This document shows positions 3,925-64,000 of a DNA stretch of 64,000 nt, in pieces. Origin of the DNA: Phyllosticta citribraziliensis (Eukaryota); assembly GCF_038025025.1 (NCBI RefSeq), contig NW_027117341.1:2294001-2358000 (forward strand), given 5' to 3'. The notes beneath the pieces are model-generated. The model was given only the letters and a program-made list of their open reading frames with translations. It did not search any database and had not been told where the DNA came from. The translations under genes were made by a program, and so were the position numbers. Each line of letters starts with the position of its first letter. Within the stretch, counting starts at the first letter, position 1.

Positions 3925-5056
3925 CTAGCTGAGCAGTACCGCGTCCAGCAGCCCGGTCATGACCTCGAGGTTGCGCGCCACGGCGGGAGCCACACTCATG
4001 GGATCGCCCGCGCGCGCCAGTGCCTGCAAGGCCGCCATCGTCGTCCAGCGCGCGCCGCCGTTGTCGTCGATGGTGCCCTCGCGCAGCCCGTCCGCCAGGC
4101 GCTGTAGCACCCTGACGTATTCCTCGAGAAACAGAAGCGCGTTCCTCAGAATCTGTATGGGCCCTTGGTCTTCCGTCAGACTGTTTGACAGCTCCCGCAT
4201 CGGGCGCAAAAGCTCCTTCGATTGGTCCCGGCGCCAAAAGCCGCCGTCCAGCTCGGGGCTCTCGATTGCCTCGATGAGAAACTCGTTCATGTGCTCAAGC
4301 TTCTCAACATTTTTCTGTTGCTCGTCAATGAAGTCCAAGGCCCAAATGGCGATGAACCGCGCTCACCTTGATGATGCGGACAATCCAGTTCAAAATCCTG
4401 AGCACCGTCTGCAGCTTTTGATCCACCCTGCCTAGCGTTTGTTGGAGATAAAGTAGGGCTGCGTCGGCGTCCACCGGCACGCGCTCGATTGCCGCCTCAA
4501 CGGTTGAAGCCGTCTCCTCGAGCAGCGCTTTTGCGGTCCTGGGGCTTTCGGCGGCGTCGTCGATGGCATTGCCCGCGCTCTCGAGGATATCAGGCGCGAA
4601 TTTGAGCAGGTAGAGTCCGTCCCGCAGCGACGTGTTCCGGGTCAGGGTACAGCTGTCTCCAATGGCGTGACTGACCGTGTGGGCGAGGTTCAAGTGTTTG
4701 TCGAGCCACCGAACCACGTCTCCCATATTGTTCAGGTGGGCCGAGGCCTGGACCGCTGCCATGTTGGGGTCGGCGTGCTTGATGATGGTTCTTGTAAAGG
4801 GAGGGGGGTGGGTCGGTCCGGCGGGAGGTACACGTTGTGGGAGGAGTGTGCGGGCGAAGAAAACAGCACCGAGAAAGAGGGCGGCGCAGGCCATGAGAGG
4901 ATGGTGGATCCAAAACAGCATCAGAGAGTTGGTGTTTCGGACGAGTTGGTCGTCGGCTACCCTGATGACCTGGCGAGCACGGTCTCGAAGTTGGTCGTCT
5001 ACATGGCTGGCTGGTGGGGAGCCATCTCTGGATGAGGCATATTCTCGATCCGCCAT
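3925..5056 (-). CDS. Single-pass membrane protein with long helical domain (family member A); intron 4366-4315
   Basis: ATG at 5056 (MADREY), TM segment LMACAALFLGAVFF. The GTGAGC..CAG intron fuses ORFs 4325.. and 3925.. in frame. Confidence 0.7.
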
Positions 5057-5559
5057 GTTGGCGGCAGCGGCGGATGATGTGTCTCGCGAAGTAGAATGGC
5101 GGTGCCAGCGTTGACCAAAGGGACGGCCAGCTTGTGGAGGACCAGGACGAGGCCAAGGAGGAGCCAGGAGCTGAAGGAGAGAGCGTGGACAAAGTCGTTG
5201 AGCGTAGCTGCGAGTGCGCGTCCGTTGCCGACGTGCGCCGCCTGGGCCAGGTCCATGTTGATGCACCGCGTCCACGCCAAGCACGCGTGTTCCAGCTGCC
5301 TGCGGCCCTGCGAGCAGCCGTAGTCGTGGTAGGCCTGGGCGCATCTTGTTATTTGCGTCAGGGCCTGCGCCGTGGCATGCATCGCGGCCGTCTGCCTGTC
5401 GCCTTGTACGGCATTGCAGCCGGCCCACACGGCCCACACGGTGCAGCACGCCCAGAAGAAGCGCACGCCCAGCTCGACGTACCGCGACAGGGTGCGCGGC
5501 AGCTGTGGGTGTGCCTCGACGTAATCGAGCAGCGAGCGCCACCACGCCGTGTTGTCCAT
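4999..5559 (-). CDS. brr6: Brr6/Brl1-family nuclear envelope protein (minimal, divergent)
   Basis: TM, then C-x3-Y-x4-C..C-x2-W-x2-C-x3-D (RCAQAYHDYGC..HACLAWTRCINMD), amphipathic ALAATLNDFVHAL, then a second TM. This matches the Brr6/Brl1 four-cysteine luminal domain. Confidence 0.8.
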   Translation of the reverse strand: MDNTAWWRSLLDYVEAHPQLPRTLSRYVELGVRFFWACCTVWAVWAGCNAVQGDRQTAAMHATAQALTQITRCAQAYHDYGCSQGRRQLEHACLAWTRCINMDLAQAAHVGNGRALAATLNDFVHALSFSSWLLLGLVLVLHKLAVPLVNAGTAILLRETHHPPLPPTWRIENMPHPEMAPHQPAM

Positions 5560-5867
5560 GTTGTTGTTTGTTGTTGTGGCTTGGAAGGGGGAGAGAGTGA
5601 AGTGGCCGGCCAAGTCTGCAGAATTCGAACAAAGGGGCCACATCTTCCCTCTTCTTCTGCTTTCGTCCAGTCGAGAACGAACAGTGATCATGTCCCCACT
5701 CTGACTCGTTGCTCTCGTCGTCCAAAAGCGTCTTTGTCTCGTCCAAGGCTCTCATTTTCCCACGTCGGTTTTGTTTTGTGCCTCAATCTTGACGTCTGCC
5801 GTCCCTCGTCATGCAATCACCTCCACTGCCGCATGTGTCGCGCAGTCATTCGTGGCCGCTGAGCGCA

Positions 5868-27843: not shown

Positions 27844-28371
27844 CTAGTTTTCTGAAGCATTGTCCTTGGTTCCTTCAACGAAGGAGACGGACTTCCTGCG
27901 CTTGGGCTTCGTATTTGCAGCCACCAGCACATCGGCAAAGTCGGTCACGGCCCTGGCGGCAAACTGCTCGTGGACCCACGCCACCCAGTGCGGATGGCCG
28001 GGCGCAACGCCGCCGCTGTTGTTGCTGTCGTTGCTGCCGCCGCCGCCGCCGCGGTACAGCCCGCCCATGTCGTGAATTTCGCGCACCAGGCGTGCGGCGA
28101 GCGAGCGGATGGCCGTCGAAGGCGAAGGCGATGGCGATGGAACGACGACTGGCACCGCAACTCCCGCGTCCTGCTTGCTGCCGTTTCCGTCACCATGGTC
28201 CAACTCACCGCTCACTGCGGCGTTGGATTTCGTGGTCCAAACTGGGGCCGGCGGGGTCGGAGACGGAGAGAGAGGCGACGCAGCAGTTGGATGGCCGCCG
28301 GCCGACGTTGGCGTTGGCGTTGGCCTTGCCTTTGCCCCTGTCATCCATCTCTTGAGCCACGAGCGCAGCAT
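27844..28371 (-). CDS. Small low-complexity protein with C-terminal KRRKSVSF (RVxF-type PP1 docking motif)
   Basis: ATG ORF with GC-rich codon usage; the motif is visible in the translation. Confidence 0.6.
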   Translation of the reverse strand: MLRSWLKRWMTGAKARPTPTPTSAGGHPTAASPLSPSPTPPAPVWTTKSNAAVSGELDHGDGNGSKQDAGVAVPVVVPSPSPSPSTAIRSLAARLVREIHDMGGLYRGGGGGSNDSNNSGGVAPGHPHWVAWVHEQFAARAVTDFADVLVAANTKPKRRKSVSFVEGTKDNASEN

Positions 28372-29961
28372 ATGATTTTTCAGGAGAAGTTGGCAGCAAG
28401 GGGCTGGCATGAGATAGACCAGCGGCCGCGTGGATGACGACCGGCTTGTCTACACGCGGGAAATACATGCAGGTGGTGGTGTCATTGGCTGACAAGGGAG
28501 CGTGTACATTGGTGGTAGCCTGTTTTGCGTCAGCCAACCAAGCGAGCAGAGATGCCGGGGACAGTGACACCTACCTCTTGCTCCGCCGCCTGGCCTCGGT
28601 GCAAGTGGCACCGCATCAATCTCTCCAAGACCAGTGTCCAAGCGCCGAAGCCCTGTCTGACCGTGACCGCGACCGCTAGCGGCTAGAAATAGCAGCAGCG
28701 CGGCAGGCACGCATTGCGAGAGGTAGGTCAGATGAGAAGTTTGCCGGGCGTCGCCGCCGCTGGGCGTGTCGTCTCCGTACGTGCATGCGTGCGTGCGTGT
28801 GTGCGTACAGGACCTCATGGCGTGAAGGAGACCTCCATTGCGCGCATCACCGCGGGCACAAGGCTTCTAGAAAGTCGAAGCTGCAATGCCATAGTAAGCC
28901 AGCGAGGGGGTACGGACAGAGCAAACGCAGTGTAGCAGCACGTGCCATGGTTTCGGCCCAACAACCAAGGAACTCGGCGGCCCCGATGACCGTGATGGAT
29001 TCAGGAGAGGCATAGCACGGTCCGGCGACTCAAGAAAATGCCAGACATGACAGATTGCGCGGCGTGAGGAGGGACAGTCTTTGTCTGGGACATTTCAGGC
29101 TGATGATGGATGGATGAAGTAGGGAGCCGCGGCAGAGATGGACGCCTAGCTGCCTGCTAGCAGAAGATGTGATGATGCTTTGCTCAAGGACCTCCCATCC
29201 TGTCGTTGTGAGCAGCAGCGCAGGCGGGTCGATGTATTTCTAACATCATGGATTCATCCACACGACGCCAGCCACGGTGGTTCGCTGCCTGAAGATGACT
29301 GCCATGGCGAGCAACAAAGCTACCGTTCGCTCGCGACTGACGCTGACTATCAAGGCTTGCTGCTGTATTCGGCCGACGAACGACTCGAGGCCATGTTGTT
29401 GTTGTTGTTGTTGTGGTAGTGGTGGTGGTGGTGGGGCCGTCTTCGGATCTAGCGTGCGTGCAGTCGCTGGCTGGAACTGTATGTATTCCGGCTGGAAGGA
29501 AGACGTGGATGGATATCAACGAGGTGAAGTTCTGTCGAAGTAAACGACGGCCGAGAAACAATCCTCTTTTGAATGGCTCTGCTCTGCTCTGCTCTGCTCT
29601 GCTCTGCTCTGCGTCTTTTCCTCCTCCTGCCTATCATATGCGTCGACGTTGCCATATCCTTTCATTGACTGACGCAGTCGTCCAAACTTCTGTCGCTCGT
29701 TCGCAGCGTCGTCGTCAGTTAGAGCGTTCGTTTCAGGGCGGCATAGTCGTCAGGTGGTTGGTGCAGAGACTGGCCACCTGCATCATCCACGGCGGCATGT
29801 CTGCCTGCTGGAACGAGCCTTGTCTTCGGCATAGCCTGCCTCGGATTTTCAATTCGTGTAGCAGTCGTGATTCGTAGGTGTTCTGGTTCCTCGTCCGAGG
29901 CATGCTTGCGACTTGTGCATCAACGACTGACTTTGACATAGGACGAAGGTCACATTTCTAG

Positions 29962-30252
29962 ATGCTACCCAGACGTAGTAGTCCTGTTTGGAAATACACG
30001 GGAAATAAGAACGGGGAGAAAAGCGTCGGAAAAAGGAGAAACAAAGGCAAAAAAATCCAAAGTAGTACTGTTTGGAAATACAAGGGAAATAAGAAAGGGG
30101 AGAAAAAAGTCGGAAAAAGGAGAAACAAGGGCAAAAGAAAACGTAGTACTGTTTAAAAATACAAGGGAAATAAGAAAGGGAAGAAAAGTGTTAGAAAAAA
30201 GAGAAAGAAAGACGGAAAAAAAAACCCTCAAAAAGATTTCTTTGGCGAATGA
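29962..30252 (+). pseudogene. Lys/Arg-rich repeat peptide (3 x 27-28 aa, STVWKYKGNKKGEKKVGKRRNKGK)
   Basis: Repeat periods of 84 and 81 bp keep the frame. The third copy has TAA where copies 1-2 have TGG. Confidence 0.5.
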
Positions 30253-30419
30253 AGAACAGAGCACGGCAGACAGCAACAACAACAACGACAAGACCAGGCA
30301 AACACCATGAGGCGCAAGATTAGCCTCCTCAATCACCTCCGACCAGGCCATCCTTTGGATTGGACCTGTGCTGTGCACCTGGCTGGGGACAACCAATGCT
30401 CCCGAATCTATTCCTCCTC

Positions 30420-31430
30420 TTATGATGACTCGGGCCGCCTGCGCTCTTTCTCCCACTCGGGCCCAAGACCACCCTTCAGAAGCGAATCGCCCATGAGCCA
30501 GGCCAAGTGCCTGTTCCTGCGCACCGAGCGCTCTACCTCTTGGTCGATTTTGCGACGCTCCTCTTCCCAATCAAAAAAGTCTTGGTCACCAAAGCCAAAC
30601 CAGCCACGAGAGCTTCTTCGCAGCTGGCGGAAACAATCAGCAACCGTGTGGAATGGCTTGCTGAGCCTTTCGGCCATGAAGATGAGCTTGAAGTAGTCGT
30701 GGTCATCCATGTCCATGGCTTCATCCGGTGAAACTGGCCCATCATCCATCATGTCATCAACATCGAGGTCCTCGCCGTCGGCTAGAACGTCCAGATAGCG
30801 GCTCTTTTGCTCGTTCTGCAGGCATTGGAACCTCGCCGCCGTGTATGCATCGTCAAGTACACCCGCCACAATCAGCAGGTGGCGCTCAGAGAGATTGAAG
30901 ACGGCGCGGAGTCCCGGGGTGGATTGCGGGCCGCCCGGTGCCGTGCTTGTCGGGGGCTTTGCAACGCGATCCGGATGCCACAAGGCACGCACACGTCGAT
31001 AGCCTTTTCGAACAGCGCGGAGGCAGGCCCGGGACTCGGTGCTGTTCGGGGCGCGAGCGTTCTGCCAAGAGTCGGTCAAGTTGACTGGTGTGCCAAACAA
31101 GGTCCACGGATGCATCTGAGCCCCGTCGAGTCGCGGGCAGAGCCGAGGCAGTTGGAACATCCAGTCGAAGGCATCGGCTTGTGGAAGCATGGGAGGGGCA
31201 GGACAGACGAGTGTTGGCGGCGGCGGCGGCGGCGGCGGGGCGGGCGACGTGGCCAAGAAGTGGGCGAGCAGCGATACAAGCACGACCGAGGCGACTGTCG
31301 CGTATCCTGGAATGGGAAAGGGTCGGCGTAGAGAGTCGATCAAGGCGGAGAGCAGCGGCCAAGCTGGACGGGAGGCATTGCTGCCGACGCGGGCAGGGGG
31401 GCGTGCAGGGCGACGCTCACGCAAGGACAT
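30420..31430 (-). CDS. Membrane-anchored DnaJ/J-domain-like protein 2
   Basis: 336-aa ORF with TM segment ATVASVVLVSLLAHFLA and ACLRAVRKGYRRVRALWHPD..LDDAY. Confidence 0.75.
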   Translation of the reverse strand: MSLRERRPARPPARVGSNASRPAWPLLSALIDSLRRPFPIPGYATVASVVLVSLLAHFLATSPAPPPPPPPPTLVCPAPPMLPQADAFDWMFQLPRLCPRLDGAQMHPWTLFGTPVNLTDSWQNARAPNSTESRACLRAVRKGYRRVRALWHPDRVAKPPTSTAPGGPQSTPGLRAVFNLSERHLLIVAGVLDDAYTAARFQCLQNEQKSRYLDVLADGEDLDVDDMMDDGPVSPDEAMDMDDHDYFKLIFMAERLSKPFHTVADCFRQLRRSSRGWFGFGDQDFFDWEEERRKIDQEVERSVRRNRHLAWLMGDSLLKGGLGPEWEKERRRPESS

Positions 31431-31990
31431 GGTGTTGAGAATGGAGCGAAGGACGAGACACGAACAGAGGACGAGGACGAGGATGAGGACGAGGACGAGG
31501 ATGAGGACGAGGGAGGGCGAGTAGAGAGAGAGGTTTCTTTGTCTTGGTGTCCGTTTCCGGCGGCTGGGCCGGCGGCTGGCCGTCGCCCTGCAGATGGAGA
31601 TGGCGCCATGTCTCGGCTGTCTGTGTGTCTGTCTGTTGATGGCCGTCGGTCGTTCGTTTGCTTCAGTGGGGTGCAGTGGGTGGTGTGGTGTACAAGCAGT
31701 GAGTGAGTGGTTGGTTAAGGGACGGAGAAGGAGATAAGGTGGAGGGAGTACATGTCCGCTTTAGGCTCACCGCCGACGTCAACCTCGCCTCTGAAACTGA
31801 TAAAGGTACTAAAGGCAATGCAATCTAGCTATTAGATTGGACCAGACCAGTCTCGTGCTTTAGGGCCTGTCCTCAAGTTGCCGACTTGGTTGCATTTACT
31901 ATGCATCCAACTACCACGATTTGTCGCCATTCCTGATCCACTCTTCTAGCGCCGCCAAAGGTGGAATCCATTGCCCATGGTTGCGGCAAA

Positions 31991-32286
31991 ATGGCAGTGT
32001 CTGGGGCGAAGGGAGTCGTGGAGAGCTGGATGCTGTTGATCGAGCCACAACATGCTGGAGTTGTGCAGTGGACCAATGCCGCGGGGCGCAAGACGGCTGT
32101 GTGGCCGGCGTGGACCAAGTCATGGCTCCGTCAGGACTGGAGTGGCAACGTTGACGAACCGTCCGAAGCACGCAAGGCGACGATTGCGGCGTGGTATGCG
32201 CAGCCCATGCGATACGCTGAGGGCACCATGTTCGCCGACTTGGCCAGGGCCATGAACGGCGACGACCTTGGGCGACCAAGCCGCAC

Positions 32287-32319
<33 letters not shown>

Positions 32320-32626
32320 TCTTTCGACGTCGCCGCCGCCGCCGCCGCCGCCACCACGTCAAAGCAGCGCCAACAACACGGAGCGTCACTTCAGGGGCAG
32401 ACTTGCCCGGAACGATTTTGCATCGCCCCTAGAGCGCATGGGCTACGAGCGCTTGGTGCGGGAGCGCATCTCGTCCGAGTTGGCGAACCTGGTCCCCCGC
32501 CTGGCCAGGCGGGAGACTGTCGGTGGTGGAGGAGGAGGAGCAGCGCAGCGGCGCGAACAGACCCTGGAGGACGAAATCACCGCGTCGATTCGCAACATCA
32601 TGCGTGTCTTGGTCATGGAGCTGTGA
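31991..32626 (+). CDS. Hypothetical protein with poly-Q/poly-P linker and helical C-terminus
   Basis: Intact ATG ORF, convergent with CenH3. No family recognised. Confidence 0.6.
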
Positions 32627-32865
32627 AGTGCGTGCGTTGTGGTCTTGCGGAAGCGCGCGTGTGGGTGTGAGATGTGGCATCAGACTGTGGCATCTTTGCA
32701 TTTCTTATTTCTTTCAAATTGTGTGTTTCGGCTGCATGATGAGAATCAAAAACCAAGACTGCGGGAGTTGTTAGCAGAGCGCAGGTAGTTTCGTCGTCGT
32801 GTCTTAAGTACCAAGCAAGCCCTAGCAAAAGTCCGAATATCCTCAATCACTCATGTCGTGTCCCA

Positions 32866-33297
32866 TCAGAAATCGCCACCAAAGCCACCCGAAGCCCGAA
32901 TGCGTCGTGCCAGCTGGATATCCGCTTGCTTGATGGTCACGCGCTTGGCGTGCATGGCGCAAAGATTGGCGTCTTCGAAGAGCGACACAGCACAGGCCTC
33001 AGCGACCTCTTGGAGAGCCATGAGCGCCGATGACTGCCAACGGAGCGGAGCTGAGCCGGGCCTGGTCATGGAGGCAGTGATTTCGCGGACCTGGTGTGGA
33101 ACAGGGGGTCAGCGGCGGCACATGTGGAGGCCAGATGCACGTACAAGTCTCGCGAAAGGCGCCTTGCACACGAGGAGCTCGGTGGAGCTTTGGTAGCGTC
33201 GAATCTCGCGCAGTGCGAGTGCGCCTGGCTTGTACCTGCGGCGCTGCTTTGGCTGGGGTTGCGTTTGCTGTCTTGTTGGCTTCGACTTGGGCGCCAT
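32866..33297 (-). CDS. cenH3: Centromeric histone H3 variant (CenH3/Cse4/CENP-A), 125 aa; intron 33144-33091
   Basis: Spliced fold [83 protein letters not shown]. Shows the CenH3 diagnostics: A at H3-Q68, W at F84, non-T at T107, longer loop 1, non-canonical tail, GG-containing C-end. Confidence 0.9.
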
Positions 33298-33661
33298 TTG
33301 AGGTGCGATGGGGGTTCGACTCAACTCCAACTGATGGCGGAGAAGAGGATGGAGAGACCCGGCGCCGAGCAGAGAGAAGGCGAAGGCATTGCGGATGGAT
33401 GAGGCTGGGGTGAGCCTGGTGCCGAACTGATGTCGTTGGAGGTGAATGACTGAGGGAGACGGTGTGCCCGGTCAGCGCCCGAGGCGGAGGCGGGGGCGGA
33501 GCGGGGCGGACGTATATAGATGCCCCGCAACACCATTCTGCCATCACGACACCGCCACTGACACCGACACCGATACACACAAAAACAAACACACCTCCCT
33601 TGTCCTGTCTCCTCCTCTCCCCCTCACCAACGACACGAGACCTCCCTCCTCCACCGCCGCC
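33298..33661. promoter_or_regulatory. Probable bidirectional promoter between CenH3 and Scm3
   Basis: 364 bp between divergent ATGs; TATA-like TATATA at ~33513. Confidence 0.55.
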
Positions 33662-34345
33662 ATGCACGATGACGAAGACGACGACGACGACGACGACGAA
33701 AAAAGCGAGGATGACGTCTCACTCCACACAAAGCTTGCCCAGACCCAAGGACTGCTTGGCGCTCGCATCCGGGCCATATGCAACAAGTACGAGCGCGAGG
33801 CCATGCACGCACAATACGAAGCAGACGAAATTGACCTGGAAACATTGGAGGTTGTGACGGACAATGGCCATCTTCGCGGCATACAGGATTGGGACGACCG
33901 GGTCGACGACATGGAGGGTCAGGGGGAAGGGGAAGAGGAAGAGGAGCCGCAACGCGAAGAGGCGGCCCAAAAAACAGCATCCCCCGTCGCCGCCGTCGCA
34001 CAACGAGACGAGCCAACGCGACGCGGGTGGACTGCCGAAGAGAAGGCGCTGGTCGTAGACTTGCGCGACGAGCAAAAGCTGCCGTTCCTAGCCATTGCTG
34101 CACGGTTTCCCGGGCGGTCGGTCGCAACCGTCATCGCAAAGTACCACCACCTGAAGAAGCGAGGCGGCAGCGGCGGCGGCACAAGGATGTACAGGGTCTG
34201 GACTACTGAGGAAAAGTCGCTGCTCTGGAATCTCCGCAGTCAAGGCTGCGAATTCAAAGCAATTGCCGAGCGCCTGGGAAGAGCGGTGCCACAGGTCGTC
34301 ACTCGCTACAGGTCGCTGAAGAGGGAACATTCAGTCCGTGGGTGA
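33662..34345 (+). CDS. scm3: Scm3/HJURP CenH3 chaperone with two C-terminal Myb/SANT repeats
   Basis: LLGARIRAICNKYE..ADEIDLETLEVVTDNGHLRGI is the Scm3 signature (I..KY..DEIDL.T..V.DNGHLR). WTAEEK..IAARFPGRS..KY and WTTEEK..IAERLGR..RY are Myb repeats. A GTGAGT at 34342 could extend the gene. Confidence 0.9.
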   Translation: MHDDEDDDDDDDEKSEDDVSLHTKLAQTQGLLGARIRAICNKYEREAMHAQYEADEIDLETLEVVTDNGHLRGIQDWDDRVDDMEGQGEGEEEEEPQREEAAQKTASPVAAVAQRDEPTRRGWTAEEKALVVDLRDEQKLPFLAIAARFPGRSVATVIAKYHHLKKRGGSGGGTRMYRVWTTEEKSLLWNLRSQGCEFKAIAERLGRAVPQVVTRYRSLKREHSVRG

Positions 34346-34789
34346 GTCTGTCTCCCTGAGGTGCCCGCTCTCAGAGGCCTACGGATTACCATTGGCCGCT
34401 GGGCGTCATGCTGAACGACGGGAGGACGTTTACCTGTACCCACCTCACCCAAGAAACCCGGGATTGTTCTCGTCGATGGCGAGAAGGGCGCTGTGTAGTT
34501 GTTAACAATCAAGATGGCGTTGCAAATTCCAATGCGTAGACCTTCGTATCTTGTACCTATGCATTGCTTGCGTGCCGTTGTACGGTAGGTAGACGCGCCA
34601 TCACGTGCGCGCGCGGTTTGCTTGCCTTCCTGGTTGGCTAGGCATCAAGATGACGTCATCATTCTGTCCGTCACCTGCCCGGCCCCTGCCCTCAGGTCTC
34701 GCCCGTCCTCCCGTCGGCTGCACCCGGTGGCAGTTGCCGTCCGGCCAAGTCCTGTCGCCTCTCCCCGAGCCGTCGCTCCATGTCCACCA

Positions 34790-34892
34790 CGGCACCCTCC
34801 CTCTCTCCATGGCACCCTCTCTCTACGGCACCCTCTCTCCACCACCCTCTCTCCACCACCCTCTCTCCACCACCCTCTCTCCACCACCCTCC
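34790..34892. repeat. 14-bp tandem repeat (CCACCACCCTCTCT)n
   Basis: Directly visible. Confidence 0.85.
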
Positions 34893-35242
34893 ATCATTGC
34901 AATACGGCCGAGCTCCCACTTTCTCTCCCCAGACAGCTGCTGTGCACTGCCCTGGACCGACAAAGCAGAAGCACGCGCATCGGAGCACGAAGCCTGTGCC
35001 CCGACCATGGAGGCCAAGGGCCAGCCAGCCACTAGCATCTGGTGAGTTGAACCATCACACGTCGTGAGAATGACACCAAACTGACCCATTTCAGCCGACG
35101 AGGGACGACCCACACTCATGCCCTGCCCCCAAACTTCCACCACCTCACTCACCTGCGGTGCTGATGACGGCAATCCATACACCGGGGCTCAGAGCGCGAG
35201 AAAGGCAGCCGAGGCAGCAAACCACAGAAGTCGCGTCGTCAA

Positions 35243-35610
35243 GACAAGAGTACCAATACCACGTCCACGCCGCGCGCCCAGACATCCACCACGTCTCCTG
35301 CCGATGACGAATACCTTGGAAATACGAGCGAAGAGCCCAGCGCCCCAAAATTGCTGCGCCAGAGCGCCAGTCGCTCGTTGCTGAATCGCCAGGGGCGAGA
35401 AGAGCAGGCGAACAAGCAAACCGCAGCAGTCTCGTCGGGACAAGAGTACCAACACCACGTCCACGCTGCGCGCCCAGACATCCACCACATCTCCTGCCAG
35501 GGGCGAGAAGAGCAGGCGAACAAGCAAACCGCAGCAGTCTCGTCGGGATAAGAGTACCAATACCACGTCCATGCCGCGCGCCCAGACATCCACCACATCT
35601 CCTGCCGATG
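35243..35610. repeat. 108-bp tandem duplication plus a partial third copy
   Basis: AGGGGCGAGAAGAGCAGG.. at 35391 and 35499; shared AAGAGTACCAAYACCACGTCCA block three times. Confidence 0.85.
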
Positions 35611-36039
35611 AAGGTGATCCATATACTGGGGAGACACTCTGCGGCTTCTCCTCCCATTATGAGAGCAGAGACCCACCACAACAACACCAGAACCAAAATC
35701 AACACCCACTAGACCGGCAACACAACGCCACCTCAACAACACCCGGCCCTCGCCTCTCCAACGTCGACCCCCACCGGTTGTCCCTGACTACGCTCCTTTC
35801 CCTCCTTACCCGCCCTGGCACAACGCCAACCGCGAGACCGCTTCCGTCAACACTACTCCTGCACCCAAAAGGCACCACTCCAGCTTTACCCTCAATGCGG
35901 CGGGCGAGATTCAATTCGATTCACCTTCTGTACGCAGCGCGCTCAGCCCATTTCGTCCGCCACGGCCGCTGGCAGCCTTGACGCGCTGCGCACGCTCGGC
36001 GCCTCGCGCAACGCCTCGCCATCGCCGCAGCCGCCATCG

Positions 36040-36590
36040 CAGCGCCCGTCAATCTTGACATCTTCGAGACCAGCAGCCTCGACGCACTGCGCACGCTCAG
36101 CAGAGAATCCGCTCGCCGCTCACTCCCGGTAGTTACCTGCCAGTATCGTCAGCGCCCGTCAATCTTGACATCTTCAAGACCAGCAGCCTCGACGCACTGT
36201 GCACGCTCAGCAGAGAATCCGCTCGCCGCTCACTCCCAGTAGTTACCTGCCAGCATCGTCAGCGCCCGTCAATCTTGAAATCTTCGAGACCAGCAGCCTC
36301 GACGCACTGCGCACGTTCGGCAGAGAATCCGCTCGCCGCTCACTGCCGGTAGTTACCTGCCAGCATCGTCAGCGCCCGTCAATCTTGACATCTTCAAGGC
36401 CAGCAGCCTCGACGCACTGTGCACGCTCGTCCAAAGACTCCCAAGGCATACGCTGTGACTACACCCCCCAAAGTTCATCGTGGCCAGCGTCAGAGAATCT
36501 GCTCGCCACTCGCTTCCAGTATATTTGCCGGTAGTTCCCAGCCGGCATCATCAGCGCCCGTCAATCTTGACGTCTTCAAGACTAGCTTCA
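36040..36590. repeat. 110-bp tandem repeat, ~4.5 copies
   Basis: AGCGCCCGTCAATCTTGA at 36041, 36151, 36261, 36371 and 36553. Confidence 0.95.
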
Positions 36591-36659
36591 CGCGAATGAG
36601 AAAGAGACCCTTTAATTCCTTCAATGAGGAGGACCAGTCCCTGAGCAAGTATTATAAAA

Positions 36660-37365
36660 AAGTTTGAACCGACGCGGGCGCGACCAGACCGGACATACTT
36701 CATGGTACTGCTAGGGTGCGCAATGTGATGCCCCTTCCTCACGCAACACCATATACGGATTCCGGCACTACCATCAAGCCCTCTGCGAACCTCGAGCATT
36801 CGTCGCCAAGGACAAGATCTCCGCGAACGACAAGATCTCCGCGAACCTCGACCAGATCTCCGCGAACCTCAAGCATTCGTCGCCAAGGACCAGTCGCCGA
36901 GCAAGTATTTCAAAAAAGTTCGAACCGACGCGGGCGCGACCAGACCGGACACACTTCAAGGCCCTTCGCGAACCTTGAGCATTCGTCGCCAAAGACAAGA
37001 TCTCCACGAACCTCGAGCATTCGTCCCCGAGGACAAGATCTCCGCGAACCTTGAGCATTCGTCACGGACAAGATCTCGGCGAGCCGCACAATCTCAGACC
37101 CAGAGCCCTCCGTGAACCTTGAGCATTCGTCGCCGAGGACAGATCTCCGCGAACCTCGACCATTCGTCCCCAAGGACAAGATCTCGGCGAGCCGCACAAT
37201 CTCAGATCCAAAGCCCTCCGCGCACCTCGAGCATTCGTCGCCGAGGACGGATCTCCGCGAACCTCAAGCATTCGTCCCCAAGGACAGATCTCTGCAAACC
37301 TCGAGCATTCGTCCCCAAGGACAGATCTCCGCGAACCTCGAACATTCATCGCCAAGGACAAGATC
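36660..37365. repeat. 37/38-bp minisatellite (TCTCCGCGAACCTCGAGCATTCGTCGCCAAGGACAAGA), ~11 copies with higher-order duplications
   Basis: Directly visible; the unit length is not a multiple of 3. Confidence 0.9.
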
Positions 37366-39738
37366 GCACCTGCGGACGTTGGAGCCAGACTTTGCATTCA
37401 GGTGGGGATTGCGGTGAGACCGTCCTATTGAACGCAACTACACGGCCACGCGCAAGCGGTGTTTGATAGCAGCCAGCCAGCCAGCCAGCCACAATAGCTT
37501 TGTATTTACACATTTTCCTAATAGCCTATTTGTTACGCTGCCGCTGACGCGCAGAGCGCATTTTGAACCATGACGCGCGCAAGGTGTCCACATACATGTC
37601 GTGATGGCGACCGGGAACGGACACTTTGGCCATGAAACGCGCGACCGGGGATGCGCAACGGACCGCCGCCAGAAAGTGAGCGACGATAGTCCATCCCAAT
37701 GCTCCTCCCCCGTTGGCTTGGTCACATCACCAGTCACGTCACCTCCTTCCTCCTTCTGCTCCTCTCACCACCTGGACTCCGCCCTATGTCTCGCCATCTT
37801 TTCTTCTCTCAACCTCAACCTCAACCTCACCCTCACCCTCACCCTCGCGGGCCGTCACGCTTCCGCCAGCCTCGCTCGCTTGCTCTTCGTCCCTCCATCG
37901 CTGACTTGTGAGTACACCTGTGTTCCTCCATGGCCAGGCAGCCACCCTCCCTCTGTTGCATCATCGCGCTGACCGAAGCAGACGAGACGACGAGCAGCAT
38001 TGGAAGACCTCGCCCTCGCCCTCACCCTCGCCCTCACCCTCGCCCTCGCCTTCATCCGCTCTCGTCAGCCGAGTGCTCTGTGCGACCGGTGACGCATTGG
38101 AAGACGGTTGAACAATACCGCCTGTGGTAGAGCGACTCTGGTACTCAATGCTCATTAGCGGGGTGTGTTGTCAGGGCAGTATGCTTCCCCACTCTTCTTC
38201 TCGTTCCAAGCCACTATTCTGACCAACTGCACAGGCTGCGGGTGTGTTTTCGTGGTCCGGGCCGGCCCAAGGCTGCTTTGGCACCACTCTGACTTCGCCT
38301 TGGACCTTGACTCGGCTTCGGCTTGGATCTTGGATCTTGTTGCCATCAACGACACATGCCCCATTCAGCGGCTTGATTGCCTTGAGTTTTCCGCTTATGA
38401 AGCTGACTGACTGTGCGCAAACAGACTCCGCCCAACGCTTCTGCTTGGATGACCGCCGTCCTGGACCCTTGTTTGTCCAAATCATCCTCAACCCGGACCG
38501 ACTTTACGCATACCCCGCCCATCTCTCGCCGTCATCGTCGGTCGGACACAATGCCCCTTTGGTTCTGCAATGTTGGTTTGCCCAGCTCATTCTCGCCGTG
38601 TTCTCAAAACTGACGGTACGCAGGTCTCTCGCCGTCGCCGTCACCGTCGGTCAGACACAATGCCCTTCTAGATCTAGATCGCACCACACACTCGAGGCCC
38701 TTCCCGGTCCGCCGACTACCGTGGACACAACCAACACCACCTCACTCACCTCAGTACCTTGCAACTATCGCACCCTTTCCATCCCACCTGATGATCGCCT
38801 ATCCCGGACACTCCAGCTCGCTTGCTCCCGCGCTCGCTCGCTCACACCCTTCACTGCGCAGACTGCTTCTCCAACCGACCGACCGACCGACCACCTCTCT
38901 TGCACAGCCCGACCAACTCACGATTGAAGGAACAATTTCATAGTTGGGGCACATGGCCCATGGTAAACCCTGCGGGCAGGCTGTAGTGTGGCGCTCTCTA
39001 TAGAAGCGTGCTCGCCAAATGTAGAAATCTTAAACTTGAAAGGCAAGACAGCAACTCCATTCGTGCCAAACAACTAGAAGCCGACATGTTGCCTTAGGTT
39101 CCCTTGCGCGCCGCACTCCTATCCACTCAACCAGAGCCCTTTATAAAATCTAGCAGACTCTGACAGGCCGTGGCTCTAGGAAGAGGAACCACAAGGCTAC
39201 GGCAGCAGGTGGAAGCGACCAAAGCCAAAAGGACTGCGTAATACCCCGGGTCAAGCTCTGCGTCACACGATGGGGCGCCGATTTTTGATATTCCCTGGGT
39301 GAAGAACAATTAAATCTACCACAATCCAGTTGCAGGCAGGAAGGAAAGGCTACAAGAGGTAGGAGGTAGTATAGACCAGAATGACGGTGTTTACGCCTTT
39401 TCCAGGGTCCGATCCATACAGGCAGGCCTCCCCGATCCTATGCGCACTTCGTCGTCGCTTTTTCTGATTACGACGACCCGAGCTTCCAGCTTTGTGGGTG
39501 CTTCCGCGGCTTAGACAGCCGGGGCTAGACAGTGGTGGTGTTCTTATTGGCGGGGTAGAGCAAACAGCGGCGGTGCGCTTAGTGGTGTAGTAAGTACTGT
39601 CTCGGGAAGAGTAGGATTATTCACAGTCAGGGGGAGAAACCCACAGAGATAGAAAAGAACGACAAGGCCCTCTGTGCCCCATAATCATCTCCATCCTTTC
39701 CCTCTCCTCCATTACCATCCTCTTCGCCTTCTCTAGTC

Positions 39739-40272
39739 ATGACTTCTCAAACGCCACCAAGTCCGTCGGAAAATCCCATCAAAAGCCAGAAGCAACATCC
39801 GGCCATCCAAAAAAAAGGAGACACCAGATCCGCAGAAAAGCCAGCTTTCGAGATGGAGTCTGACAACCTAGGTGCCGCTACTCCCGTCCACAATCCCACC
39901 ACGCGCACCCGGCAACAACAATCTACTCCTCCACAAACGCCCGCTCCTCCTTCTCCTCCTTCGCCTCCGTCTCCTCCTTCTCCACGTCTACGGCGCAAAC
40001 GGCGGCTCTCCGATTTAGACCTCTCTCCAACAGATGGAGTGGGCCGCAACGTGCGACGACGCCTTGTTTGGGACGCCGAGGGCGGAAAAGGCGGCGGCGC
40101 TGAGGGCGACGAACCAGTGGACACCCTTGCTCAGTGGGAGGAGGAGGAGCTATTGCCACATGCCGATTCCCCACCGAGCCCGAGCCCGAGCCCAAGACCA
40201 GCACGCACAGTTGGCCGCCGCAGCATCGCTCAGTCTAGGATGCGATTGGCTCTGCGCCAGAAGGACCGCTGA
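39739..40272 (+). CDS. Disordered protein with 14 S/T-P sites, RRL motifs and NLS (Sic1/Rum1-like architecture)
   Basis: 177-aa ATG ORF containing TPPQTP, SPRLRRKRRL and VRRRLVW. Confidence 0.65.
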   Translation: MTSQTPPSPSENPIKSQKQHPAIQKKGDTRSAEKPAFEMESDNLGAATPVHNPTTRTRQQQSTPPQTPAPPSPPSPPSPPSPRLRRKRRLSDLDLSPTDGVGRNVRRRLVWDAEGGKGGGAEGDEPVDTLAQWEEEELLPHADSPPSPSPSPRPARTVGRRSIAQSRMRLALRQKDR

Positions 40273-62500: not shown

Positions 62501-64000
62501 TTCTCTCTAATATAGTTTACTTAATTATATTTAAGAAGGTATATTTTACTTACTTATAATTAAGAAGGTATATTTTACTTAGTTATAATTAAGAAGATAT
62601 ATTTTACTTAGTTATAATTAAGAAGGTATACTTTAATTAATTATAATTAAGAAGATATATTTTACTTAGTTATAATTAAGAAGATATATTCTACTTAATA
62701 TTAATTAAGAAGATAAAATATCTATTACTCTATATAAAGAAATGTTAAAGGAAATAATACTAGTCCTATAGAGAATAAATAGAGTTTTATCCTAATTAGG
62801 AAGTGTAGGTAAGGTCTGCCCCTAACTATATAGCCCTAATACTAGCCCCTATAAGGGGAGTAATCTATTACTTTTAATAGGTTATAAGCCTAGCTTCTAG
62901 CTATATATTTAAAGCTATAGACTAGTAGTATTAGATTCTCTTTTACTAAGAGAAGACCTTATAAATTATACCTAACCCTAATAGGTAATAAATTATAAAC
63001 TCTCTAAAGTACCTATTATATAGAGGCTAGTATAAAGGAGTTAGAGATTAATCCTATATAGGCTTAAGTGCCCTCTAATTAAATCTTAACTACTAGAGTA
63101 GGGCTTAGTATAGTATTACTACTAAAGTAGTTATATAACTTAAGTGTCCTATAGTACTTAGAACTAGAGAAAAGTAATATTAATTCTTAAGGCCCTACCT
63201 ATTTAATAAATACTATAAGTATCATTTTAACGCCTATCGGCGTACTATAGAATAGTAAGTATAGTAAGACTAGTCTATAAGGTGGTATCTAATTAGTAAG
63301 GTAGTATAGCTAAATAGGTATATAATATAGTTATATAAGAGATACTAAAGAATTACCTTTAAAATATTAGTACCTACTAAAAACTATAAAAACTAGTACT
63401 CCTTAAAGTTCCTAATTATAGCTAAAACACCTGCCACCCTATTAAACTCTAAAGAAATAGAGAAGAGATATAATTATAAGAGTATAAAGAAATCTACTAT
63501 TACTACTACTTAATCTTTAAAGACTAAAGAAAAGGGATCCTAAGTAGAAGTAGCTAAATTATATTAGGTAGATCCTAAGTAGGATAGGGCTATACTTCCC
63601 TAACCTAATAATAAGGAGAAGCCTAAATAGAAGAAGAAGTAGGTTAAGTCTAAGCTCTTTATCTATAGAGATTCTAGTAAATTAGACCCTAAGTCTAAAG
63701 GTAGTCAGGCTAAAGAAGAAGGCCTAGTAGGTCTAGCTAGTATAAAAGACCCTAAACTTAGTATGCTTATAATAACCTAATTAAATATTATAGATATTAA
63801 TAGAGATTATAAAATTAACCCTAATTTTCTAGCCCCTAGACTATCTATACTAGAACCTACCTACTAGCCACGTAGAGATGCTAGAGATAGTATTAGATAG
63901 TAGGAAGAGCTTAATACTTAACTTTACCTATAATAATAATATTTTAGTAATAATACTAAATCTAAGATTAAATAAGGTAGTAGATAACTAGTAGTAGTAT

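Follow-up and report, generated by a model that had tools for sequence, protein, structure and literature searches.

Why would a gene for a centromeric histone H3 (CenH3) stand head-to-head with a gene for a protein resembling Scm3, the CenH3 chaperone? The question is raised by a 64,000-nucleotide stretch of DNA from the citrus-associated fungus Phyllosticta citribraziliensis (contig NW_027117341.1, positions 2,294,001 to 2,358,000; hereafter the window, with positions counted from its first letter), in which an original prediction, made from sequence alone, had inferred a private, co-evolved centromere-specification module. The explanation that we favour, in which we place roughly even confidence, is that the resident CenH3 gene of the fungus, which is expressed, stands head-to-head with a likewise expressed Scm3 paralogue, short and fast-evolving, which would act as an auxiliary or alternative loader or escort of the histone. 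The CenH3 of the window is probably the only CenH3 gene of this fungus.

The CenH3 gene lies at 32866-33297 on the minus strand and encodes 125 aa in two exons, and the Scm3-like-Myb-Myb gene, whose product we call P0001, lies at 33662-34345 on the plus strand and encodes 227 aa without an intron. Positions 32866 and 34345 are the final bases of the CenH3 and Scm3-like stop codons, respectively. With one ATG at 33297-33295 and the other at 33662-33664, the two divergent genes are separated by 364 bp (33298-33661), which is exactly the spacing that had been predicted, the coordinates having been re-read from the sequence. CenH3 exon 1 (33145-33297, minus strand) provides 51 codons, covering a short N-terminal tail and the start of the histone fold, its frame and ATG being set from sequence. 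Exon 2 (32866-33090, minus strand) provides 74 codons and the TGA (32868-32866), and encodes everything from the end of helix 1 to the C-terminal tail, with loop 1 and helices 2 and 3 in between. The open reading frame (ORF) of P0001 ends with a stop codon at 34343-34345.

As for the histone, both exons exceed the cutoff of the Pfam Histone profile (PF00125, 26.4 bits), exon 1 with 44.5 and exon 2 with 71.3 bits. Exon 2 is 100% identical to P0284 and to P0404, a 151-aa CenH3 model from another assembly that scores 125.8 bits. The closest PDB sequence to exon 2 is Schizosaccharomyces pombe Cnp1, in an alignment that takes in loop 1, whereas matches to H3 begin after this loop. Among database relatives of at least 131 aa, the best 120 of 593 matches are all fungal, with 64-72% identity, and the named ones are mostly labelled Cse4 or centromeric H3. 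Loop 1 itself was compared in a motif count over 242 proteins, 56 of which fell outside the pattern and were left unclassified. In the window CenH3 it comprises 11 residues and precedes a Trp. Phe stands at this place in 16 rows, each with a loop of seven residues, and Trp in 170 rows, with loops of between seven and 17. Finally, an IQ-TREE phylogeny was built from 36 rows (our own sequence, 30 CenH3s and five H3-type rows, a length and motif filter having removed four H3-type and two CenH3 rows). A branch with 96/93 support puts the window histone with the 30 CenH3s, apart from the five H3-type rows, and the histone therefore does not group with canonical H3, as the original prediction had anticipated. 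Judged by its sequence, the window histone is of the CenH3 type, though an odd one.

The neighbouring protein shows a recognisable, if divergent, Scm3 domain. Residues 27-76 of P0001 (33740-33889, plus strand) match the Pfam Scm3 profile (PF10384) with 38.1 bits against a cutoff of 24.3, and are predicted to form a long helix with a KY motif followed by an acidic/hydrophobic hairpin. When P0001 is aligned with canonical Scm3 domains, the KY motif is seen to be kept, together with the alternating acidic/short-hydrophobic strand motif of the hairpin, DEIDLETLEVVTDNGHL (DEIDLET..DNGHL). Both features are described in PMC13322267, where the KY motif is called "definitive" and is said to contact a glutamate in helix 2 of CENP-A. 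The Scm3 domain of P0001 matches canonical long Scm3 proteins with up to 31.6 bits across most of its length, compared with 23.3 and 18.5 bits for P0133 and P0123, two short paralogues introduced below. An AlphaFold2 (AF2) model of P0001, built on 15 aligned sequences, places a helix at residues 17-51 and strands at 56-58 and 63-66 (block predicted local distance difference test [pLDDT] of 75-87), followed by a disordered acidic linker at 80-115. By these features, P0001 appears to retain the part of Scm3 that grips CenH3-H4, that is, the long helix with its KY motif and the DEIDL..DNGHL hairpin.

The remainder of P0001 is Myb-like. The Myb_DNA-binding profile (PF00249, cutoff 24.4) matches two stretches with 30.5 bits, and PF13921 matches with 28.7 bits. 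Repeat 1 (34019-34162, plus strand, approximately residues 120-167) and repeat 2 (34196-34324, plus strand, approximately residues 179-221, the best Pfam Myb stretch) are both also found in the AF2 model, as three-helix units at residues 125-168 (block pLDDT 93-97) and 182-226 (86-98). A Scm3-Myb-Myb neighbour, as originally claimed, is thus borne out by a genuine though weak Scm3 match and two Myb-like stretches, the Histone, Scm3 and Myb profiles all scoring above their cutoffs. Foldseek with the P0001 model found no PDB match at E <= 0.001, and none to Scm3 or HJURP; its weak matches were to tandem Myb-DNA complexes (1H88/1H89, 3OSG and 6JUI, E 0.03-0.1). A sequence search of the PDB with P0001 returned nothing better than E 0.3. 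A complex prediction with CenH3 residues 47-151 and Scm3-like residues 15-90 gave a score of 0.02 and a mark of 0.34, and, having been run without H4 or alignments, it carries no weight either way.

Is P0001 the Scm3 of this fungus? A second protein under the same species name, P0262, is annotated as a "centromere protein Scm3-domain-containing protein" and is encoded on a 3.5-Mb contig, outside the window. Like P0001, P0262 combines an Scm3 domain with a Myb-like domain. It differs in its length of 519 aa, its single Myb, its Scm3 score of 79.2 bits and its location on another contig, and shows only 35-39% local identity to P0001. Two further paralogues, P0133 and P0168, also bear this species name. 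P0001 is therefore an extra, divergent copy and not an orthologous sole Scm3. The original prediction had allowed that the pair might merely be the orthologous sole copy; this does not apply to the chaperone, whose canonical form lies on another contig.

An exhaustive HMMER search over cluster representatives with P0001 gave 462 matches at E <= 0.001, with only the query itself at E <= 1e-30, and a protein search restricted to 124-398 aa returned only P0001. These relatives include two kinds. The first are long, measuring 1000-2000 aa, and come from fungi of the Mycosphaerellales type and from unnamed sources; in them a strong Scm3 domain at the N terminus (79-85 bits) is combined with a GATA finger and multiple Myb domains. 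The second are short Phyllosticta proteins of 235-344 aa with the same Scm3-like-Myb-Myb layout as P0001, namely P0133 and P0168, under the species name of the window, and P0123/P0271 and P0129/P0272 from P. citricarpa. In local BLASTP comparisons, the short paralogues are 31-46% identical to P0001. Among themselves, across the two species, they are 33-62% identical (P0133 and P0123, 44%; P0168 and P0129, 50-62%). At such identities, the short Scm3-like family is fast-evolving. Several short paralogues share an N-terminal ELERKL-type motif and have a progressively decayed Scm3 domain. The KY motif is absent from P0133, P0123 and P0168, and Pfam Scm3 is undetected in P0129 and P0168; with the motif or the profile match lost in these sister paralogues, the Scm3 domain is decaying in the short family. 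P0001, with its full-length domain, KY motif and hairpin, is by sequence the best preserved of the short paralogues. As part of our preferred explanation, and with the same balanced confidence, we take the neighbour to be an accessory, lineage-specific member of this small Scm3-like-Myb-Myb family.

The decay of the family also suggests a more sceptical reading, which we consider unlikely, that P0001 has lost its chaperone function and works as a common DNA-binding regulator of the Myb type, in which the Scm3 segment is a relic, placed next to CenH3 by an accident of lineage-specific rearrangement. The weak Scm3 score of 38 bits and the sister paralogues that lack KY or, as with P0129 and P0168, a Pfam Scm3 match are in keeping with this, as is the AF2 model of P0001, in which confidence is highest for the Myb units. 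However, P0001 is the very member of the family that best keeps the canonical domain, in its full length and with both KY motif and hairpin. Two further points against this reading, the small a priori chance of such a neighbour and the retention of the arrangement under a second organism label, are taken up below.

We then return to our preferred explanation, which has both genes expressed. Contigs of four coded sequencing runs were aligned to 28000-40000, of which X1 and X2 are from organism A and are guessed to be RNA, while X5 and X6 leave parts of the stretch uncovered; transcript ends are not definable from these contigs. The CenH3 intron (33091-33144, minus strand, 54 nt, GT..AG) is skipped exactly by one contig each of X1 and X2. 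A second intron, of 53 nt (32759-32811), lies within the 3' untranslated region of CenH3 (32439-32865, minus strand), whose extent is that of a single spliced contig: record 3 of X1 aligns at 32439-32758 and again at 32812-33088, and omits the 53 bases in between, which read CT..AC on the plus strand. In the other direction, the contigs on the CenH3 side stay colinear as far as 33403 in X1 and 33419 in X2. Across the Scm3-like ORF, record 8 of X2 (33564-34531) and record 4 of X1 (33709-34536) are colinear with the DNA and show no skip. Nearby genes also show GT..AG skips in the contigs, for example at 37908-37981. Because introns are skipped, including in these nearby genes, the contigs of X1 and X2 are most simply read as derived from RNA, and on the basis of the intron-skipping joints and the unspliced cover of the Scm3-like ORF, both genes of the pair seem to be transcribed.

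The covered stretches of the two genes come within about 145 bp of each other or less. The shared upstream region (33298-33661, 364 bp) comprises both 5' leaders, GC-box-like repeats at 33484-33509 and a TATATA element at 33513-33518, the latter within the uncovered gap. The CenH3 leader contains an upstream ORF of 22 codons and a stop (33321-33389, minus strand), which X1 and X2 contigs cover and which may be a translational control element.

Two alternative gene models were rejected. The first would use GTGAGT, a potential splice donor overlapping the stop codon of the Scm3-like gene. The contigs remain colinear beyond this site, and tblastn with long Scm3 proteins detected no homology downstream of 34345; with GTGAGT unused as a donor, the protein length is 227 aa. 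The second is the RefSeq-style model behind P0404, whose first exon would correspond to 34641-34558 (minus strand), past the Scm3-like gene, and which implies a 1.25-kb intron spanning that entire gene. This model was discarded because its start Met reads Leu in the window and because the contigs are instead colinear up to 33403 and 33419.

Is the pairing more than an accident of this one sequence? A contig of 3385 nt from run X5, which carries the label of organism B, retains the CenH3 intron and matches the window colinearly through 32783-34523 (64 mismatches, 97 gap letters) before it jumps to 37607-37875. Because of this colinearity, the head-to-head cassette is present in a relative as well. 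The intervening 34500-37600, which is replaced by some 600 nt in the organism B contig, is therefore a fast-changing neighbour of the cassette. It contains tandem repeats with units of 108-110 bp (35388-35606, 36035-36428 and 36967-37365) and is covered by X1 and X2 contigs with a GT..AG skip at 35041-35093. The pairing was also looked for in other fungi, by scanning metagenome contigs with an Scm3 alignment. All of the 19 loci found have a real Scm3 domain (36-87 bits), and none of the 19 has an H3-like gene near Scm3 within the available flanks, which are of at least 1.4 kb upstream at 15 loci; several loci are near-identical, leaving approximately 14 distinct ones. The same tblastn with a lichen-fungus CenH3 finds the window CenH3 at E 9e-39. 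With no H3-like neighbour at these 19 other loci, the pairing is not the general fungal state but a derived feature of the lineage.

How often would chance produce it? With at least four Scm3-like genes named for the species and an assumed total of about 10^4 genes (genome size is given as 29-32 Mb in PMC9073689), the chance that a given immediate neighbour is Scm3-like is about 10^-3, a figure that is rough and a posteriori. The earlier judgement that chance linkage is unlikely agrees with this estimate, which, like the arrangement retained under the organism B label, argues against the sceptical reading of P0001 as a regulator placed there by accident.

Several observations nevertheless weigh against our preferred explanation. 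The Scm3 score of P0001, 38.1 bits, compares with about 80 for canonical fungal Scm3 (65-87 in canonical relatives). The run kind of X1 and X2 is only guessed ("RNA?"), and transcription has been deduced from intron-skipping joints. No orthologue of CenH3 or P0001 from another named Phyllosticta species is among the protein-search matches listed, which may reflect absent annotation. Finally, the CenH3 itself is unusual. Its terminal branch in the tree measures 2.48, against a median of 0.33, and lies outside the ascomycete CenH3 group; because the branch is so long, the tree does not settle its position within the CenH3 group. The sequence has Ser for His in helix 2, Lys for Met in helix 3 and Ala for Gly, at three sites each invariant in 29/29 fungal CenH3s. 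It has Ala for Leu at two further sites (conserved in 28/29 and 27/29), and lacks a Trp near the C terminus that is present in 25/29. H3-type rows of the motif count have Ser or Gly at the CenH3-invariant His position. The helix-2/helix-3 surface serves both CenH3-CenH3 contact and Scm3/HJURP binding. The initial claim that this histone bears all diagnostic substitutions is therefore only partly right: the long loop 1 and the Trp are there, but Ser, Lys and Ala stand where all 29 fungal CenH3s have His, Met and Gly. Such departures, like the long branch, are as compatible with a specialised second copy as with a fast-evolving sole copy.

If the window CenH3 were a specialised second copy, it could form with its neighbour a private, orthogonal pair, the two having co-evolved, with a canonical CenH3 and P0262 elsewhere in the genome and with linkage keeping the pair co-inherited and co-expressed. 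We judge this unlikely, though it is the main rival to our preferred explanation. A canonical Scm3 elsewhere in the species is what it expects, and so are the substitutions at the three invariant and further near-invariant sites and a very long CenH3 branch outside the ascomycete CenH3 group. It would also account for the lack of any Dothideomycete CenH3 among the best 120 of the 593 matches of at least 131 aa. The helix of P0001 is likewise divergent, and parallel divergence of both partners fits. In mosquitoes, moreover, paralogues of CenH3 and of its chaperone have been retained together, according to the abstract of PMC7306699. On the other side, only one Phyllosticta cluster is found among the best 120 of 155 matches in a search of 40-130 aa, with no second CenH3 in sight, and the best 120 of the 593 longer matches contain no second CenH3 either, although a list of this kind is unable to exclude one. 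CenH3 duplicates are rare in fungi, and fast evolution is usual for CenH3 even as a single copy. Of the "private" module originally proposed, the chaperone side holds, given a canonical Scm3 elsewhere, but the CenH3 side does not, no second CenH3 having come to light in these searches. Its "co-evolved" character is a presumption drawn from the parallel and unusual divergence of both partners. In its most far-reaching form, which we also consider unlikely, Phyllosticta would keep an orthogonal centromere kit. A divergent CenH3 would form one bidirectional unit with a Scm3-like loader of its own, armed with Myb repeats and co-evolved with it, and this unit would work alongside canonical Scm3 and perhaps a canonical CenH3. 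If true, the kit might give this fungus a second route of centromere specification, either tied to one stage, such as meiosis, or driven by conflict.

The genomic context bears on one last rival, that the two genes are a cassette of a mobile element, a virus or a horizontally acquired island carrying its own centromere kit. The window proteins are recorded on a 253-kb contig. The G+C-rich part of the window (1-44.3 kb) has 53-63% G+C in 2-kb windows and few recognisable genes. In a Pfam scan of 1-44.4 kb, covering 215 stop-to-stop ORFs of at least 80 aa (62 ORFs of 80-149 aa at 32.7-44 kb were outside the scan), the sole match besides the pair was a Brr6-like gene (5002-5751, minus strand, PF10104, 66.8 bits). 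A multi-exon gene on the plus strand at 37177-40000, with contig-supported introns at 37908-37981, 38179-38234 and 38572-38623, has no Pfam match in its scanned ORFs. From 44300 to the window end at 64000, at least 19.7 kb, extends an AT-rich block with 22-29% G+C that starts about 10 kb from the cassette. Its indices of repeat-induced point mutation (RIP) are extreme, with TpA/ApT of about 1.75 and (CpA+TpG)/(ApC+GpT) of 0.03-0.05, and the block may be either a centromere or just a RIPed repeat island.

A foreign cassette might be expected in such surroundings, given a 44-kb part in which Pfam recognises only Brr6-like, CenH3 and Scm3-like genes and a RIP-degraded block that begins 10 kb off. 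However, G+C is uniform with the flanks, the introns are fungal and spliced, and no transposase, integrase or viral domain was found among the 215 ORFs scanned. In addition, the same CenH3 gene is present on a 2.5-Mb contig in another assembly, and the closest Scm3-like relatives are paralogues within the same genus. We thus consider a mobile or foreign origin very improbable indeed. The window is ordinary fungal nuclear DNA and not a mobile element. The notion, implied by the original prediction, that the pair came from elsewhere and that "host copies" exist beside it finds no support, given the fungal introns, the G+C content matching the flanks and the same gene on a 2.5-Mb contig in another assembly.

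How, then, would an expressed CenH3 and an auxiliary Scm3 paralogue work together? From the gene structures, domains, spliced contigs, paralogues and conservation in organism B, we infer co-regulation, binding and a loading role along the following lines. The 364-bp region would act as a bidirectional promoter and drive joint production of the histone and the chaperone-like protein, as in divergent core-histone pairs. The helix and hairpin of the Scm3 domain of P0001 would bind new CenH3-H4. The disordered acidic linker would join this part to the two Myb-like helix bundles, which would contact DNA or chromatin. P0001 could in this manner serve as an alternative or auxiliary CenH3 loader or escort beside canonical Scm3.

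One implication concerns how matched partners stay matched. CenH3 and Scm3/HJURP are mutually dependent and both fast-evolving, and how such a matched pair is maintained is an open question of centromere biology. A CenH3 coupled to an extra chaperone paralogue, with the canonical chaperone elsewhere, is a compact natural experiment. It asks which of the two, the paralogue or canonical Scm3, is the loader of this CenH3, whether co-expression or co-inheritance is what linkage serves, and whether loading is directed by the Myb repeats to particular DNA, such as RIP-degraded AT-rich blocks. If the neighbour is merely a decaying paralogue, the locus is a modest curiosity of gene order.

The components of this arrangement, namely Scm3-Myb fusions, co-retention of CenH3 and chaperone paralogues and divergent histone pairs, are already known. 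In the literature searched, we found no CenH3 gene physically paired with an Scm3-type gene, a point on which supplements of comparative kinetochore surveys might bear, and no fungal family of short Scm3-like paralogues beside canonical Scm3. Fungal Scm3 fused to Myb, AT-hook or zinc-finger DNA-binding domains was described by Aravind, Iyer & Wu (2007, Cell Cycle 6:2511, as cited in PMC8997354; reference entry PMC2697330), and the idea that Myb repeats aid targeting is equally old by the same citation. An Atlas cluster of 141 ascomycete proteins, which we take as a lead only (score 0.80), has Scm3 in 100% and Myb in 45%. Like these fusions, P0001 has an N-terminal Scm3 domain followed by Myb-like repeats, canonical Dothideomycete members combining Scm3 with GATA and several Myb domains. 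Unlike them, it measures 227 aa instead of the 1000-2000 aa of the Mycosphaerellales type, has about half their Scm3 score, and is a paralogue that adjoins CenH3 while canonical P0262 is present as well.

A second parallel comes from mosquitoes, in which, according to the abstract of Kursel, Welsh & Malik (2020, PMC7306699), paralogues of CenH3 (Cid) and of the chaperone CAL1 are co-retained, which is discussed there as specialisation under intralocus conflict. As in Phyllosticta, there is more than one CenH3 chaperone copy per genome and the copies are divergent. The systems differ in that mosquitoes are insects, that physical pairing with CenH3 is not described in that abstract, and that the duplication seen in Phyllosticta is that of the chaperone. 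A parallel in gene order is offered by filamentous fungi themselves, where core-histone genes form divergent pairs with bidirectional promoters, according to PMC6900853. Those pairs consist of two histones, whereas a histone variant and a chaperone-like partner are paired here, their co-regulation being proposed by analogy. In both cases, known or presumed partners of one complex are encoded head-to-head over a few hundred base pairs.

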